Shown piece after piece: positions 1,878-22,563 of a stretch of 64,000 nt of DNA. The stretch is from a phage: the sequence record PZ386967.1; one strand, written 5' to 3'. Under the pieces are notes generated by a model. It worked only from the letters and a program-made list of their open reading frames with translations, made no database searches and had not been told where the DNA came from. How positions within the stretch are numbered: the first letter of the stretch is position 1; each line of letters starts with the position of its first letter. The position numbers and the translations under genes were made by a program.

Positions 1878-2255
1878 ATGAAAAAGTTAATCCTCGCTGT
1901 TGCCCTGCTGGGCGCTTCCTTTGCTGCTGTTTCCGCCCCTCCTGTCATCACCGGAGTGTCTACCAACGGTGTTTATGCTTTCAAGGCGTATGGCCAAGAC
2001 CTCGTTCTGTATAAGAACGGGAAGATGATTGAGCGCTGCGTATCAGACGACGTGAATCGTGGGATCGACAATCAGGGTAGCCCATACGTCCTGGACATCT
2101 ATTCCTGCTCCAACGGGACGAAGTCCTTTGGCGTCAAGACCTTTGGCAACGTCGCCGACGGTGGCTGGGGCTTCATGTTCGAAACCCGCAACCACCACCC
2201 GGTCAAGACCATGCAAGAAGAGTTCTTGATCTCTGTCGGGGGTGGAACATTATGA
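1878..2255 (+). CDS. Secreted protein with N-terminal signal peptide
   Basis: Start trimmed to MKKLILAVALLGASFAAVSA after AGAGACTATATC leader. Confidence 0.5.
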   Translation: MKKLILAVALLGASFAAVSAPPVITGVSTNGVYAFKAYGQDLVLYKNGKMIERCVSDDVNRGIDNQGSPYVLDIYSCSNGTKSFGVKTFGNVADGGWGFMFETRNHHPVKTMQEEFLISVGGGTL

Positions 2256-2539
2256 CGCCTGAACAACGCCGTTCCGTGAAAGTCATGGTGAAAGGTAAGA
2301 CTCAGCTGAGTTATGTCCAGTCTGCCAATGTTGTCCGCCTGATGGAAGTCAAGAACGACATCGACAACTCCCGATTCCAATCGGCACTCTACGGGCTTCT
2401 CGAGTTCGTTCTTCGCCAGGCTGATCTTGGTCCTGTCTATACTCTTGATGATCTGACCAAGCTGTTGAACACGGGCGGGGAAGGTTTCGACACTGCTCGT
2501 ATCCTGATTGACGGTGGACCTAAAGAAGACGAGGTATAA
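2252..2539 (+). CDS. Hypothetical protein
   Basis: ORF with stop/start overlap to upstream gene. Confidence 0.4.
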   Translation: MTPEQRRSVKVMVKGKTQLSYVQSANVVRLMEVKNDIDNSRFQSALYGLLEFVLRQADLGPVYTLDDLTKLLNTGGEGFDTARILIDGGPKEDEV

Positions 2540-2699
2540 TTTGGATAAAGAATTGGTTTGGGAAATTGTGAAGGGTGTCCTAGTAATAATCGCGGTGGTT
2601 TTCATCTTGGGTGGAAACTTCTTCTATTGGTTATTCCGATCCGACCAGAAACGTCGCGAACGCAAGGAGAAAGAGAGAAAGGATCGATGGATGCGCTAA
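2508..2699 (+). CDS. Small membrane protein, start uncertain
   Basis: Hydrophobic segment VKGVLVIIAVVFILGG followed by a basic tail. Confidence 0.3.
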   Translation: MTVDLKKTRYNLDKELVWEIVKGVLVIIAVVFILGGNFFYWLFRSDQKRRERKEKERKDRWMR

Positions 2700-2731
2700 C
2701 TAAGGGATAACCCTATATCCCGAGGTGTGTC

Positions 2732-3181
2732 ATGTTCCTTACATCCTTTATTGACTGGTTGAACATCATTAACGGCCTGAGGATCCCTGTTGGGAACCTC
2801 GGGCTTTCTCGTTCTTCTATGCCGCAAATCGATGCCGACAAACAAGAAGATTTTCACAAATATCTTGAAGACAACGGCGTGTCCATAGATGCTGTGCAAG
2901 TGCCCATCAAAATGCTTCGTCTCACCCAGAACGAAATCAACAAGATGAAGGTCTGGAAGATCATGAAGCAGATCAGAAATAAGAAACCTATGGGTCGAGT
3001 TTGGGTGTCTTCTGACAATTACGTTGTTGACGGTTCTCACCGATTTGTCGCTGCGTTGAACATGGACGGCAAACAGCGCATGAAGGTCTACAAAGTTGAT
3101 TTGCCAGCGATGGAATTTGTTAAACTCGCTAAACAGTTTCAGGGTGTGCGATACAGAACGGTCAGCGATACCCGTTTCTGA
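2732..3181 (+). CDS. ParB/Srx-like nuclease domain protein
   Basis: Motif VVDGSHRFVAA resembles the ParB N-terminal DGxHR signature. Confidence 0.4.
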   Translation: MFLTSFIDWLNIINGLRIPVGNLGLSRSSMPQIDADKQEDFHKYLEDNGVSIDAVQVPIKMLRLTQNEINKMKVWKIMKQIRNKKPMGRVWVSSDNYVVDGSHRFVAALNMDGKQRMKVYKVDLPAMEFVKLAKQFQGVRYRTVSDTRF

Positions 3182-3260
3182 ATACGATAGTTTATTGAAA
3201 CCCTTTACTCATCATGGTGAGCCGCCTATCATTTCATCCAATGAAATAAGGAGAATCACC

Positions 3261-3947
3261 ATGAAACGTTTAATCCTCGGGGTCGTGCTGTCTGGTCTGG
3301 CATTACCCGCCGCTGCTAAGCTGAACCCCACAGGTGATAAACTGTGGTCCGACCTTTCCTATTGTGCTGGGTTCTCCCAGGCGGTTGCCATCGACAAGTC
3401 TGGTTCCATAGAGAACTTCGCTGAACTCTGGAACACAGGCAACGTCTCCACTGCTGTCGTCAATGCCGGAATTGAGTTCAACCGTTACAAACAGGGAGCC
3501 TATAACCTCAAGGGCTACCTCAATGACGACGAATTTAACCGTGGAGGCATGGAGGCTGGCGATTTGATCATGACTGGGCGTATGGGCACCCAAGGCCGAA
3601 TGACCGTAAGACAGTGCCGTTCGCTCCCTTCTCCGGCATTACAGAAGGGTGTGCAGGTTGGTCGCCGCCACCTGAACCTCATCAACGATGGCAACCAGTG
3701 CGTCAAAGTATTCGAATACAGCGCTACGCAGACCTCTGATCGCGTCCTGAAGAAGGAATGGCGCACCCGCGCTCTTGGTCTCAGAGCCTGGCTGGTTGAG
3801 AACGATTATTACTTTGAAGACAGGGTTCAGAACGGTCTGAAAGACCTGGCCACGAATCTGAGCGTGAACCTTGATGATCCTCGCATGTCGCGCGAACTCC
3901 AGCAGACTCGTGTTGACTGCGACAATATGATGAAGGAGAACGAGTGA
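3261..3947 (+). CDS. Secreted protein with signal peptide
   Basis: Start trimmed to MKRLILGVVLSGLALPAAA after AGGAGAATCACC. Confidence 0.5.
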   Translation: MKRLILGVVLSGLALPAAAKLNPTGDKLWSDLSYCAGFSQAVAIDKSGSIENFAELWNTGNVSTAVVNAGIEFNRYKQGAYNLKGYLNDDEFNRGGMEAGDLIMTGRMGTQGRMTVRQCRSLPSPALQKGVQVGRRHLNLINDGNQCVKVFEYSATQTSDRVLKKEWRTRALGLRAWLVENDYYFEDRVQNGLKDLATNLSVNLDDPRMSRELQQTRVDCDNMMKENE

Positions 3948-4273
3948 TGAAATGTAAAATCTTGCTCTTGTTGGTACTGATAGCCGGATGTGTAAACGCC
4001 GCGCCACCGTCCAAACTGAACACATGTGTGGCATGGATGGAGACGTATCAGCAGTTCCACCCAGATGACAAAGACACATCTATCCTCCTGTCTGACTTTG
4101 AGGGAGAGCTGAAGCGCCTTGATCTGTTCAGTGTTGATCAGATAGAGAATGCGCTGGATCTTCCCATGATGCTGACTGCGGCTGATAACAGTCCACAAAC
4201 GAAGAAAGACCTGATGTATTGTCGGGGGATTGCCCAGGACTTTGTCGGATTTCAAAATAAAGTTTCGGGTTAA
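3944..4273 (+). CDS. Putative lipoprotein
   Basis: N-terminus MMKCKILLLLVLIAGC has a lipobox-like LIAGC. Confidence 0.5.
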   Translation: MMKCKILLLLVLIAGCVNAAPPSKLNTCVAWMETYQQFHPDDKDTSILLSDFEGELKRLDLFSVDQIENALDLPMMLTAADNSPQTKKDLMYCRGIAQDFVGFQNKVSG

Positions 4274-4309
4274 AATTTAGCCCTACATTGTGAACTGAAG
4301 GAATACACT

Positions 4310-5179
4310 GTGATGCTCCTGACCAAAACAATCGCTGCGGCGATTATCGAAAAGAATAAGGCTTTTGCCCCCAACGTAGCCAAAGTTATGTTGGTACACG
4401 AAGACGCTCGCGTGATCTTCGCCGAGAAGTTCGAGATGGGCGCGAAGTTCTGGTATGCCGACAACTTACGTGAGAGCAAACTTCAGGGTATCATCCACAA
4501 ACTGACTCTGGTCGCCAAGCGTAATGACCAGGGTGACTGGGTCGGCGTTTCTGACTTCAGTACGAAGATCACCCCAAAGGCTCCGCTTTCTCGTCAAGAG
4601 CGCATTCTGGAAGCCCAGGAAAAGCTGCGTGCGGCTCGGAGTACCACAAAGGCGAAGCCAGATGCAAGCCCTGTCATCAAGCCAGCGGTTGTTCCTAAGT
4701 CCAAATACCTCCCGCCCGTGAGTCAAAAGTCTGTGGAGCAATTGGTTGAGAAGCGCAAGGGTGACGTTGTGATGAAGTCTGACTCTTCAGTGGAGTCGTT
4801 CAAGCCGGATCCAGCAGAAGTACAGGCGCTGGCAGAAAAGGTAAAGAATTCACAATTCATTTCCCTGCGCGAACTTGAACCGCCTACTCGCCGTCGTATC
4901 GCCAACGAGCTGTTTGTGTCGTTCAGGTCGGATGGCAAGATCGTCCTGTGCAAAGCCCTGCGCGATGCAATCCCTTGGACAACTCTGAACATGATGGTCA
5001 CTCGCGACTTCAAGCGTTTTGGTATCATGCAAGGCAAGGACTACAACGTCAACCAGAGCGGGACTTATGTTAATCGCGCCATGTGTGACAAACTGACCTT
5101 CCCAGAAGACACCGGAACGATCCGTGTCGTTCTGAATTGGGATGACAAGCTGAACATGTATGTTGGCGATTTCCAATAA
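4310..5179 (+). CDS. Hypothetical protein
   Basis: 289 aa ORF. Confidence 0.5.
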   Translation: MMLLTKTIAAAIIEKNKAFAPNVAKVMLVHEDARVIFAEKFEMGAKFWYADNLRESKLQGIIHKLTLVAKRNDQGDWVGVSDFSTKITPKAPLSRQERILEAQEKLRAARSTTKAKPDASPVIKPAVVPKSKYLPPVSQKSVEQLVEKRKGDVVMKSDSSVESFKPDPAEVQALAEKVKNSQFISLRELEPPTRRRIANELFVSFRSDGKIVLCKALRDAIPWTTLNMMVTRDFKRFGIMQGKDYNVNQSGTYVNRAMCDKLTFPEDTGTIRVVLNWDDKLNMYVGDFQ

Positions 5180-5235
5180 TCAATAACCTCGGGCGGCTTA
5201 TCATAAAGCTGCCCTTTCATTTGAGAGACTATATC

Positions 5236-5898
5236 ATGGAAAAACTTTATTCTATTATCGTCGGTCCTGATCCTGACGGATTATTCTTCGCCTCGTTGTC
5301 TTATATTGCCCACGCCCGTATCGGTAGCTATTACGCATATTGCACACGTGGCCACGACGGTTCCAATATCCTCCATTATAGCCGCCTGAACGATTTCCTG
5401 GCACTTCAACCAGAAGATGTTGTGCTGGCGCGTCGCGTGTTCATCGACTTCAACGCGATGCACAACAACGAAATCGACGCTCGCTACCATGCCATGCGTT
5501 CTATGGACGGGGGAGATTGCATTTATCGTATCGACCATTTTAGTGAGTTTACCGAATGTATTGATTGGTTTATCTCTGATAAAGTGATGGGTGAAAGAAT
5601 CGTCACAACTCCGTGGGCACATGCGGAACAACTTCGTGTGTCTACCGATGCGTACAAAGAAGTCGACAATCTGTGCAACAAGTTCCGCATCTCGGTGACC
5701 TGTAATCAAGACCTGGGCGAAGAGATACAATGGACAGCTGAGTCTCCTCATTTCAGTGGCCTGGTGATGACGGCCGAAACCCGTTCCCGTGCTGTTGTCC
5801 AGTTAGTACTCTGGGCGTTCTACCAGCGCACCCCGTTCTCGTACATGGGGCAGAAAGAGATTGATGAACTCCTGAAGTCTCACGCGGTGGAGGTGTAA
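5236..5898 (+). CDS. Hypothetical protein
   Basis: Start trimmed to MEKLY after GAGAGACTATATC leader; hairpin terminator upstream. Confidence 0.5.
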   Translation: MEKLYSIIVGPDPDGLFFASLSYIAHARIGSYYAYCTRGHDGSNILHYSRLNDFLALQPEDVVLARRVFIDFNAMHNNEIDARYHAMRSMDGGDCIYRIDHFSEFTECIDWFISDKVMGERIVTTPWAHAEQLRVSTDAYKEVDNLCNKFRISVTCNQDLGEEIQWTAESPHFSGLVMTAETRSRAVVQLVLWAFYQRTPFSYMGQKEIDELLKSHAVEV

Positions 5899-5899
5899 T

Positions 5900-6178
5900 A
5901 TGGCTGGCGTATGGTGTGATGTCTTGCTGGTTCGTTACAGCGTAAATGGGTGTGTCCAAGTGCGTTCCGCCTTCTATCCAGTACCGTTCTCTTCCGGTGG
6001 CCTGACGGTTCAGCGAGTTCTCGATATTGAGGCAGAACTGAACAAAAAGTCTTTTGGTGTACAAGTCCTGGGGTACGATCTTCTGAATGAAATGATGGTT
6101 GAAGAAGACAAAGTTGAGACTGTCATTGGTCGTCAGGAGATGGAATCGTTAATCTCCAAATCGGAGGTCAAATCATGA
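5900..6178 (+). CDS. Hypothetical protein
   Basis: ORF tightly packed after upstream gene. Confidence 0.4.
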   Translation: MAGVWCDVLLVRYSVNGCVQVRSAFYPVPFSSGGLTVQRVLDIEAELNKKSFGVQVLGYDLLNEMMVEEDKVETVIGRQEMESLISKSEVKS

Positions 6179-6426
6179 GTCCCAACATGGCAATAATCTG
6201 GGTTGGTGAATCGTCAATGCGTTGTCCTCACAAGACGATCACCTTCTTGGACGATGAGCGCCTGGCCGAACAACGGGTTGAAGTCCGCGAAATGCAGGTT
6301 TCTTCAAAGGTGGTGAACGTTCCTGTGACTAATATTCAGACTTTTAAGCCTTGCGTCAGAGTGATTTGTGAACGCTGTGGATGTTATGGCACGATGACGA
6401 CTGAAGACGTGGCGAAAGGCTATTAA
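6175..6426 (+). CDS. Hypothetical Cys-containing small protein
   Basis: ORF with overlapping stop/start. Confidence 0.4.
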   Translation: MSPNMAIIWVGESSMRCPHKTITFLDDERLAEQRVEVREMQVSSKVVNVPVTNIQTFKPCVRVICERCGCYGTMTTEDVAKGY

Positions 6427-22467: not shown

Positions 22468-22563
22468 CAGGCCTCATTCGACGAGGCCTTTTAAAATACT
22501 TCAAAAATAATTTTAAAAAATTATTGAAAAAGACTTTACTCTTCAATAATGATGCACTATTAT
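22468..22563 (+). promoter_or_regulatory. Terminator hairpin plus early-type promoter TTTACT-N17-TATTAT
   Basis: AGGCCTC-attcgac-GAGGCCT hairpin with T-run, AT-rich tract, then promoter; coordinates approximate. Confidence 0.45.

Follow-up and report, generated by a model that had tools for sequence, protein, structure and literature searches.

Do the exported proteins and the ParB-like protein encoded between positions 1878 and 4273 form one functional unit, and what are the two exported proteins that databases call spanins? The 64-kb window (the whole stretch of phage DNA analysed) comes from the genome of a ViI-like member of the Ackermannviridae that shares 96.8% identity with E. coli phage vB_EcoM-ZQ1. 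A sequence-only reading had described this locus as an early cluster in which signal-peptide proteins and a lipoprotein flank a ParB/Srx-like protein. It did not mention the prevailing database label of the last two exported proteins, i-spanin and o-spanin. All four ORFs that it named (1878-2255, 2732-3181, 3261-3947 and 3944-4273) are present on the + strand. Comparative data indicate that the 2.4-kb stretch is not a single module and that three evolutionarily separate elements lie here side by side: a probable accessory exported protein, a putatively virion-borne ParB/sulfiredoxin-fold protein and a separately promoted, predicted periplasmic pair. We hold the combined explanation, three separate elements with a virion-delivered ParB/Srx domain and an early periplasmic pair that is not a spanin, with slightly better than even confidence.

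Export signals were judged by rule-based checks of the n-, h- and c-regions and of the lipobox. A heuristic six-frame scan found a clean signal-peptide profile only in 1878-2255, 3261-3947 and 3944-4273 across the window; the other eight matches were set aside by judgement as spurious ORFs. The only credible lipobox ORF in the window was 3944-4273. Since these three are the only clean signal-peptide ORFs in 64 kb, their clustering is beyond chance.

The 125-aa product of 1878-2255 (+ strand, phrog_5474) has the N-terminus MKKLILAVALLGASFAAVSA, in which a basic n-region is followed by an uncharged h-region longer than 12 residues and a small-x-small c-region, in agreement with the signal peptide proposed for it. 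The signal, Cys54 and Cys77 are kept in the orthologs, including that of Klebsiella phage Magnus, which has an AHA↓D site. The protein had no match in Pfam, NCBIfam, PADLOC or PDB. It occurs in only 105 phage records, versus about 280 for the exported pair, and is predicted to be an accessory Sec-exported protein.

The ParB-like gene is conserved across the Ackermannviridae, and its product and the 228-aa protein encoded by 3261-3947 are the most conserved locally. A functional module that unites the ParB-like gene with the exported pair was considered and rejected: in distant relatives, phages of Vibrio and Aeromonas, the ParB-like gene adjoins a helicase gene and the exported pair is not beside it. 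Of the flanking cluster described earlier the coordinates are right, but the unit is not supported by the comparative data.

The genes of the pair lie on the + strand and overlap by 4 bp, with the larger one first, an arrangement kept in all relatives examined. The two genes co-occur in about 272-282 phage records. The 228-aa protein (3261-3947, phrog_4260, 'i-spanin' in some records) starts with MKRLILGVVLSGLALPAAA↓K. It has a basic n-region, an uncharged 12-residue h-region (L4-L15) and a small-x-small c-region, so that here, too, the proposed signal features are present. In the family P16, A17 and A19 are invariant, whereas position -2 and the sequence of the 12-residue h-region vary; the sites of the Kevin and Bue1 orthologs read ANA↓G and VHA↓R. 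The prediction is thus a cleavable signal peptide (residues 1-19) and a two-domain mature protein, with four invariant cysteines. Among phages that infect Salmonella, Escherichia, Klebsiella and Dickeya, four host genera, identity is at least 83%. The AF2 model, which contains short helices only, is of low confidence (pLDDT 39.8), probably because the homologs used were at least 76% identical.

The 109-aa protein (3944-4273, phrog_3843 'Rz-like spanin') starts with MMKCKILLLLVLIAGC. Its lipobox, IAGC with Val at +2, is followed by a family-conserved SPase-I site, VNA↓AP; A19, P21, Cys28 and Cys93 are invariant in the family. Of the 36 family clusters 6 have the lipobox, and each of these shares at least 96% identity with the window protein; the other 30, which include the orthologs of Vi01, CBA120, LIMEstone1, Magnus, Kevin and Bue1, lack it. 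Identity is 60-70% in Klebsiella phages versus 94% in some Dickeya phages. The description as a lipoprotein, correct for the motif seen here, would fit only the sublineage of the window phage, most orthologs having what looks like an ordinary SPase-I signal. In GenBank both pair members of LIMEstone1 carry the note of a predicted signal peptide, and the methods of the LIMEstone1 paper used SignalP. Neither protein matched Pfam, and PDB profile searches with both families gave no match.

A promoter-like site, TTTACT-N17-TATCAT (3204-3232, + strand), lies directly upstream of the pair. It is T4-early-like; GTTTAC is the -35 consensus of T4 early promoters (PMC1524935). The motif occurs five times in the window (0.07 expected), and its hexamers persist in Klebsiella phage Magnus, where the spacer has diverged. 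Because of this conserved T4-early-type site, the term 'exported early proteins' seems reasonable for the 228/109-aa pair. A literature search found no Ackermannviridae transcriptome, and the timing of the pair is read from the promoter-like motif. Downstream, between the pair and an intrinsic-terminator-like hairpin (5191-5214, + strand; 9-bp stem with six G-C pairs, T-run), lies a gene for a 289-aa protein without export signal (4310-5179, + strand, phrog_3828). It probably belongs to the same transcription unit, which presumably spans 3204-5214 and ends at the hairpin; its product diverges much faster than the exported pair. The T4 late-promoter motif TATAAATA, with three copies in 64 kb and none in the region, was uninformative on the expression of the ParB-like gene.

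We propose the following course of events. Translationally coupled behind their own T4-early-like promoter, both proteins of the pair would be exported through Sec. Signal peptidase I would free the 228-aa protein into the periplasm. The 109-aa protein would be soluble in most relatives, whereas in this sublineage the acquired lipobox would anchor it in the outer membrane. Invariant cysteine pairs in both proteins suggest disulfides formed by DsbA. From gene coupling and co-occurrence we infer an early periplasmic heterocomplex of the two proteins that would protect or modify the envelope; cleavage and lipidation in the cell, the formation of the complex, the timing of expression and every biochemical function are likewise predictions. 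The pair is thus best read as a putative disulfide-bonded periplasmic complex made early, and superinfection exclusion of the kind known from T4 Spackle is, plausibly, its most likely role. Like T4 Spackle (Sp) and Imm, these are small envelope-exported proteins of a T4-related lytic myovirus with an apparently early promoter, and the gp5-like tail lysozyme of the phage family is a possible target. In contrast to Spackle and Imm, there are two coupled proteins instead of one, and the likeness is a functional analogy of location and presumed timing only. The pair had no PDB, Pfam or PHROG relationship to T4 Sp or Imm. The structures of T4 Spackle and RI are already solved, so the lack of a PDB match argues against detectable homology to either.

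The ParB-like protein (2732-3181, + strand; 149 aa, 17.3 kDa, pI 9.9) contains VVDGSHRFVA at residues 98-107 and LRLTQNEINK at 62-71. The segment D100-G-S-H-R104 is invariant across 21 ParB-like sequences and reads DGhHR in an alignment of 165 family members. In the structure model the DGSHR motif sits between strand 97-100 and helix 102-111, and fold comparison identified the ParB/Srx alpha+beta fold. The structural neighbours include kinases, Srx, NTP-binding or -hydrolysing ParB-family proteins and proteins named 'nuclease'. The earlier assignment as a ParB/Srx-like DGxHR protein agrees with the invariant motif and, to judge from the model, is right at the level of fold. The closest fold relatives are members of the ParB/sulfiredoxin superfamily (the ParB N-terminal domain, sulfiredoxin, SerK/SbnI kinases, PadC, KorB and Osa). 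The phage protein differs from these in being a single domain of only 149 aa, which lacks the HTH and C-terminal dimerisation domains of partition ParB, and in having a family-specific N-terminal R-x-x-M-P-Q-I element. It reached no Pfam ParB model (ParBc and ParBc_2, no match at E up to 1), matched PHROG ParB families weakly (E 1.5e-3 and 9.7e-3) and had no match in a PDB sequence search; no ParA-like gene was found among its neighbours, nor was parS noted nearby.

The domain family is large. Foldseek matched viral ParB/Srx proteins in which the domain stands alone or is part of proteins of up to 1,289 aa, and a profile search found it in 4,870 50%-identity clusters, either solo or as a segment of a longer protein, the longest having 2,359 aa. 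Among its partners are additional ParB domains, a kinase domain of the zeta-toxin/AAA_33 type and regions that are head-protease-like; one large multidomain protein with a homologous domain carries a DarB-like antirestriction annotation. As a phage-restricted ParB/Srx domain that occurs solo or in large multidomain proteins, it resembles the DdrB-like, polyvalent ParB modules (Iyer et al. 2017). Membership in the P1 DdrB-like family was nevertheless rejected: the hhalign probability against DdrB was 0.1%, and the broadened 165-sequence HMM scored -0.9 bits against P1 DdrB. Since neither the narrow nor the broadened profile detected similarity to P1 DdrB, the phage domain appears to be a ParB/Srx family distinct from DdrB that shares its lifestyle.

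Solo and polyvalent phage ParB domains have been described as head-packaged early effectors (Iyer et al. 2017), and orthologs of the protein were detected in virions, which matches the packaging proposed for this class. The LIMEstone1 ortholog is annotated as 'confirmed structural protein' and corresponds to a 17.31-kDa virion protein identified by 5 peptides (35.6% coverage). Sajous1 gp192, which is syntenic with the ParB-like gene and identical at 147 of 149 positions, gave 11 spectra from CsCl-purified virions. On these detections in two relatives, drawn from virion MS lists that may contain contaminants, the ParB-like protein is probably delivered pre-made and not only expressed early, so that 'early', reasonable for the pair, would describe this protein incompletely. 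Most likely it would be packaged in the virion and enter the cell together with the DNA, to act at the very start of infection as an NTP-binding or -hydrolysing, possibly DNA-nicking, effector. As a solo protein of 17 kDa it offers tractable access to a very large and so far uncharacterised phage ParB/Srx family that apparently travels in virions, and its activity would inform many polyvalent proteins holding the same domain.

A wider reading, for which we see a small chance, is that the pair is a so far unrecognised periplasmic system, that the ParB/Srx proteins are virion-injected effectors as a class, or both, the two parts being non-exclusive. The pair would then be either a two-protein exclusion device against the incoming tail lysozyme or a non-canonical outer-membrane disruption device without an inner-membrane anchor. 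In that case the lipobox gained in the sublineage of Marshall, Maynard and the window phage would capture the passage of a periplasmic protein from a soluble form to a lipoprotein of the outer membrane. The members of at least 4,870 50%-identity clusters would be virion-injected, nucleotide-handling effectors, possibly targeting nucleotide-based defence signalling of the host.

It is rather improbable that the ParB-like protein is an intracellular nuclease, made early to degrade host or competitor DNA, and that its virion signal is contamination. The ParB/Srx fold, the conserved Arg-containing motif, the basic pI and the location within a non-structural gene region are compatible with a nuclease, and non-specific nicking or DNase activity has been reported for some ParB-like domains (reviewed in Iyer et al. 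2017). The nearest structural neighbours are, however, kinases and NTP-binding proteins as often as nucleases, and the homologous domains in large multidomain phage proteins, one of them annotated as DarB-like antirestriction, speak against this role. As to contamination, the LIMEstone1 virion list does include apparently non-structural proteins (rIIB and DNA ligase), but suspected carry-over proteins had less than 5% coverage, the ortholog was detected in two independent virion proteomes with the LIMEstone1 coverage given above, and the upstream vWA protein is virion-associated as well.

We return to the pair, which we favour as a periplasmic complex made early. That 3261-3947 and 3944-4273 encode a genuine two-component spanin, as labelled in phage Marshall, PHROG 3843 and RefSeq, is likewise rather improbable. 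The likeness to lambda Rz/Rz1 and T4 PseT.3/PseT.2 is real in several respects: the two genes adjoin and overlap, the larger coming first, which is the order of spanin genes (an o-spanin gene directly follows, overlaps or lies within its i-spanin gene), both products are exported and both have periplasmic cysteines. In this phage the small protein also has a lipobox with outer-membrane sorting residues (non-Asp at +2). Marshall and several other records carry the i-/o-spanin annotation, the match to PHROG 3843 has an E value of 9e-55, and the Ackermannviridae are otherwise without recognisable spanins. The spanin label of PHROG 3843, we presume, derives from the Marshall annotation.

The large protein fits the i-spanin type poorly. 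An i-spanin has an uncleaved N-terminal transmembrane anchor (type II, N-in/C-out), whereas by the rule-based checks the 12-residue h-region of the 228-aa protein, followed by the invariant P-A-x-A, makes up a cleavable signal; the LIMEstone1 record of the ortholog also notes a predicted signal peptide. T4-type i-spanins are about 82-85% helix in the SpaninDB tables, while the Marshall protein (98% identical) has 35% helix and no coiled coil there. The Marshall system has the longest periplasmic length of the 528 systems in SpaninDB. The small protein differs from o-spanins in being about 56% helical and not proline-rich and in lacking the lipobox in most orthologs (30 of 36 clusters). The pair has an early-type promoter, and neither of the features that are usual, although not obligatory, for spanins (holin/endolysin linkage or late expression) was found: about 20 kb separate the pair from the endolysin homolog, and no holin is annotated near it. 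The sole source of the label, Marshall, is an outlier and a singleton in both SpaninDB family tables, in which relatives with the same genes are spanin-less; most of these Ackermannviridae are so listed (Kongari et al. 2018).

Judged by these sequence features, the spanin label appears poorly founded, and we do not think that the pair fuses the inner and outer membranes. A role in lysis is still conceivable, since no other system that disrupts the outer membrane is recognised in the Ackermannviridae. About 280 Ackermannviridae genomes and PHROG 3843 carry the label unsupported by sequence features, and many of these phages are candidates for phage therapy and biocontrol, for which the annotation is to be treated as unverified.

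Still less can be said for the exported proteins being 'moron'-type envelope modifiers, which would inhibit a host periplasmic enzyme or alter receptor or capsule to the benefit of the host, unrelated to phage-phage exclusion or lysis. They are exported, contain no known domain and, for the pair, follow an early-type promoter; the 125-aa protein has the patchy distribution of an accessory gene, and the 109-aa protein diverges with host genus. These phages are strictly lytic, however, and host-benefit morons are not expected in such phages. The identity of the 228-aa protein across four host genera, moreover, points to a conserved target, in phage or host, and not to host-specific adaptation.

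Least probable of all is that the pair sets the timing of lysis like the antiholin T4 RI, through a periplasmic partner, for instance a holin domain, that it senses or binds. T4 RI is likewise a small, helical, disulfide-bonded periplasmic protein, the phage family encodes rIIA and rIIB, and no holin or antiholin was identified for it in the literature examined, but the pair matched no solved structure, RI's among them, no holin is nearby, the N-termini look like ordinary cleavable signals and not of the SAR type, and nothing found bears directly on lysis inhibition. The favoured complex is encoded by genes that are among the most conserved non-structural elements of the region, and this conservation across four host genera makes the pair a good candidate for a screen of exclusion, adsorption or lysis phenotypes.

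As to the rest of the region, searches of NCBIfam and PADLOC brought no useful match to its proteins. The window contains neither the 'superinfection exclusion' gene of Vi01 (P22 gp17-like) nor the LysM gene that lies downstream in relatives, so that neither gene bears on this locus. Between the 125-aa protein and the ParB-like protein two further genes are present on the + strand. The first encodes a 95-aa protein without export signal (2252-2539, phrog_4458). The second encodes a protein of 63 aa that crosses the membrane once and whose C-terminal tail is highly basic (2508-2699, phrog_14464 'membrane protein'); its Pfam matches are weak and sub-threshold, including a holin family at E 0.061, and its relatives are annotated with later starts.

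Over its first 9 kb the window matched Ackermannviridae (ViI-like) phages in a sequence search (276 related records), the top match being Escherichia phage vB_EcoM-ZQ1 (96.8% identity, 97% of the query covered). Upstream of the region lie genes for a vWA-domain virion protein and an acyl-carrier protein, downstream those for an HU-like DNA-binding protein and a DNA helicase. The region's proteins are uncharacterised members of known phage protein kinds in a well-sampled phage family, and their novelty is low to moderate.

A sequence-only reading had proposed a cluster of exported early proteins (1878-4273) flanking a ParB-like nuclease. All the ORFs it named were found at their coordinates. 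Classical Sec-type N-termini are present on the 125-aa (1878-2255) and 228-aa (3261-3947) proteins, the 109-aa protein (3944-4273) carries an IAGC lipobox followed by Val (+2), and the 149-aa protein (2732-3181) contains the motifs LRLTQNEINK and VVDGSHRFVA. A six-frame heuristic scan of the whole 64 kb gave 11 hits, among which the three exported proteins had a clean signal-peptide profile; the remaining eight were set aside as spurious ORFs by judgement alone. The 109-aa ORF is also the sole credible lipobox ORF in the 64-kb window. On both results, the clustering of exported proteins is real. GenBank notes for phage LIMEstone1, whose paper lists SignalP among its methods, give a predicted signal peptide for the orthologs of both the 228-aa and the 109-aa protein. 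The observation as such is thus confirmed and its interpretation partly supported: export and the ParB fold stood, but 'lipoprotein' holds for one lineage only (6 of 36 clusters), and for the ParB-like protein, apparently carried in the virion, 'nuclease' and 'early' are hypotheses. Superinfection exclusion by the exported proteins is plausible by analogy.

Of most use is a negative finding, that the name 'spanin', widely attached to the exported pair, is not supported. In the record of phage Marshall the orthologs of the 228-aa and 109-aa proteins are annotated as i-spanin and o-spanin, PHROG 3843 (the small protein) is named 'Rz-like spanin', and the same names recur in many records. Four lines of evidence speak against this identity. 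First, in the 228-aa family the residues after a 12-residue hydrophobic core of variable sequence include P16, A17 and A19, all invariant, while position -2 varies, the signature of a signal peptidase I site; shorter orthologs have ANA|G (Serratia phage Kevin) and VHA|R (Erwinia phage Bue1). The N-terminus is therefore predicted to be a cleavable signal rather than a type II anchor. Second, the lipobox Cys of the small protein is patchy. It occurs in 6 of 36 cluster representatives, each sharing 96% identity or more with the window protein. In the other 30, among them those of Vi01, CBA120, LIMEstone1, Magnus, Kevin and Bue1, the signal is of the usual kind, with x-A|x-P at its end and A19 and P21 invariant. 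Third, in the spanin survey from which the label came, both spanin family tables show Marshall as a singleton, it is the longest among 528 systems, and CBA120, ECML-4, PhaxI, Vi01, SFP10, Maynard, SJ2, SJ3, AG3 and RC-2014 are listed as spanin-less; in the survey's supplementary tables the Marshall 'i-spanin' has no coiled coil and a helix content of 35%, against 56% for the 'o-spanin'. Fourth, the endolysin homolog lies about 20 kb from the pair.

The 228-aa and 109-aa genes share a 4-bp overlap and are found together in about 272-282 phage records. Invariant cysteines (35, 119, 147 and 220 in the large protein, 28 and 93 in the small one) all fall in the mature parts, a pattern consistent with periplasmic disulfides. 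The large protein consists of a core N-terminal domain, common to the 134-165-aa versions of Kevin and Bue1, and a helical C-terminal extension; it is at least 83% identical over Kuttervirus, Agtrevirus, Limestonevirus and Taipeivirus, and is more conserved than its downstream neighbours. A promoter-like TTTACT-N17-TATCAT lies 28 nt upstream of the 228-aa start codon, and a terminator-like hairpin (5191-5214) follows the third gene of the presumed unit. In Klebsiella phage Magnus both hexamers are retained and the spacer has diverged; the -35 element agrees with GTTTAC, the -35 consensus of T4 early promoters (PMC1524935). Together, the overlap, co-occurrence, cysteines, conservation, promoter-like site and hairpin suggest that the pair would form a periplasmic complex expressed early, which in this sublineage may be tethered to the outer membrane via a newly acquired lipobox. 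The most economical guess for its role is superinfection exclusion or other envelope protection, as with T4 Spackle. This guess is by analogy only, as neither family matched a solved structure or a curated family.

The ParB-like protein had no match in Pfam, NCBIfam or PDB sequences. Its match to PHROG 2859 was strong and covered profile positions 316-467 of 740; those to the PHROG ParB families were weak. A profile search against 1.84 billion representatives yielded 4,870 clusters with E ≤ 1e-3, of which 2,272 had E ≤ 1e-10. In some members the domain makes up a solo protein of about 150 aa; in the others it is embedded in proteins of up to 2,359 aa, alongside partners that include head-protease-like regions, a zeta-toxin/AAA_33 kinase domain and further ParB domains. 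Genes of the phage collection annotated 'DarB-like antirestriction' and 'PLxRFG protein' also contain it. The LIMEstone1 ortholog, recorded as a 'confirmed structural protein', has a computed mass of 17.30 kDa and corresponds to the 17.31-kDa protein of the virion proteome (35.6% coverage, 5 unique peptides). The syntenic Sajous1 protein gp192 (147/149 identical) was represented by 11 spectra in CsCl-purified virions. The protein and its virion association agree with Iyer et al. 2017, who describe phage ParB domains, solo and polyvalent, as packaged and active at the start of infection. Kinship with the prototype of that study, P1 DdrB, was rejected, no relation being detectable.

A single module of ParB-like gene and exported proteins was ruled out. 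In two distant relatives, Vibrio phage K364 and Aeromonas phage phiA8-29, the ParB-like gene stands beside the helicase gene and has no exported pair as its neighbour. The 125-aa protein is patchy, occurring in 105 records only, and its Marshall ortholog (2463-2771 of the Marshall locus) has a 23-residue internal deletion, consistent with a dispensable gene. The window is mosaic here too. For the ParB-like allele it shares 98.7% identity with Vi01 and 83% with Maynard, whereas its exported pair is about 98% identical to Maynard, 98-99% to Maynard-type phages and 72-93% to Vi01. Judged from these alleles, a recombination junction is predicted near 3181-3260.

The motif TTTACT-N17-TATnAT has five copies in the window (0.07 expected), every one on the coding strand; the fifth (22535-22563, + strand) is far from the exported cluster. 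An intergenic cassette, in which the predicted terminator-like hairpin TCCCCAACAAACGTTGGGGA is followed by TTTACT-type promoter-like sites, occurs twice (547-616 and 900-973; 76% identity over 55 nt), upstream of the small genes 661-885 and 1020-1259. A 50-nt direct repeat (1273-1322 and 1832-1881, 88% identical) contains the hairpin GGCGGGGTA-TGAT-TACCCCGTC, TATTTGAAA and a conserved ribosome-binding and start region. Its copies directly precede an Alt-like gene and the 125-aa gene; a part in RNA processing, termination or translational control is possible. Three genes share the near-identical translation-initiation region AGAGACTATATCATG (1008-1027, 1866-1885, 5224-5243), which could be an operator, given that a RegA-like translational repressor is encoded in this phage family.

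The Alt-like 175-aa ORF (1298-1825) matched the PHROG for Alt-like RNA polymerase ADP-ribosyltransferases (E 1e-15), aligning with its C-terminal part alone (positions 1265-1425 of 1480); in phage CECAV_050 its counterpart bears the name 'RNA polymerase ADP-ribosylase'. The closeness of the window's ORF to the virion vWA and ParB-like proteins hints at a neighbourhood of injected effectors. The 63-aa protein at 2508-2699 has a single transmembrane segment, and its C-terminal tail, KRRERKEKERKDR, is strongly basic. Its match to a holin family was weak and sub-threshold (E 0.061), and it may merit attention as a holin candidate since the sources consulted identify no holin in the Ackermannviridae. 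Between their ImpD-like and HU-like genes, Vi01, Magnus and Sajous1 have a LysM-domain gene and a 'superinfection exclusion' gene that is P22 gp17-like and without an export signal (4824-5312 in locus L004 and 4596-5233 in locus L006 of the relatives compared). Neither is present in the window, where an unrelated 83-aa Cys-rich ORF (6175-6426) occupies their position.
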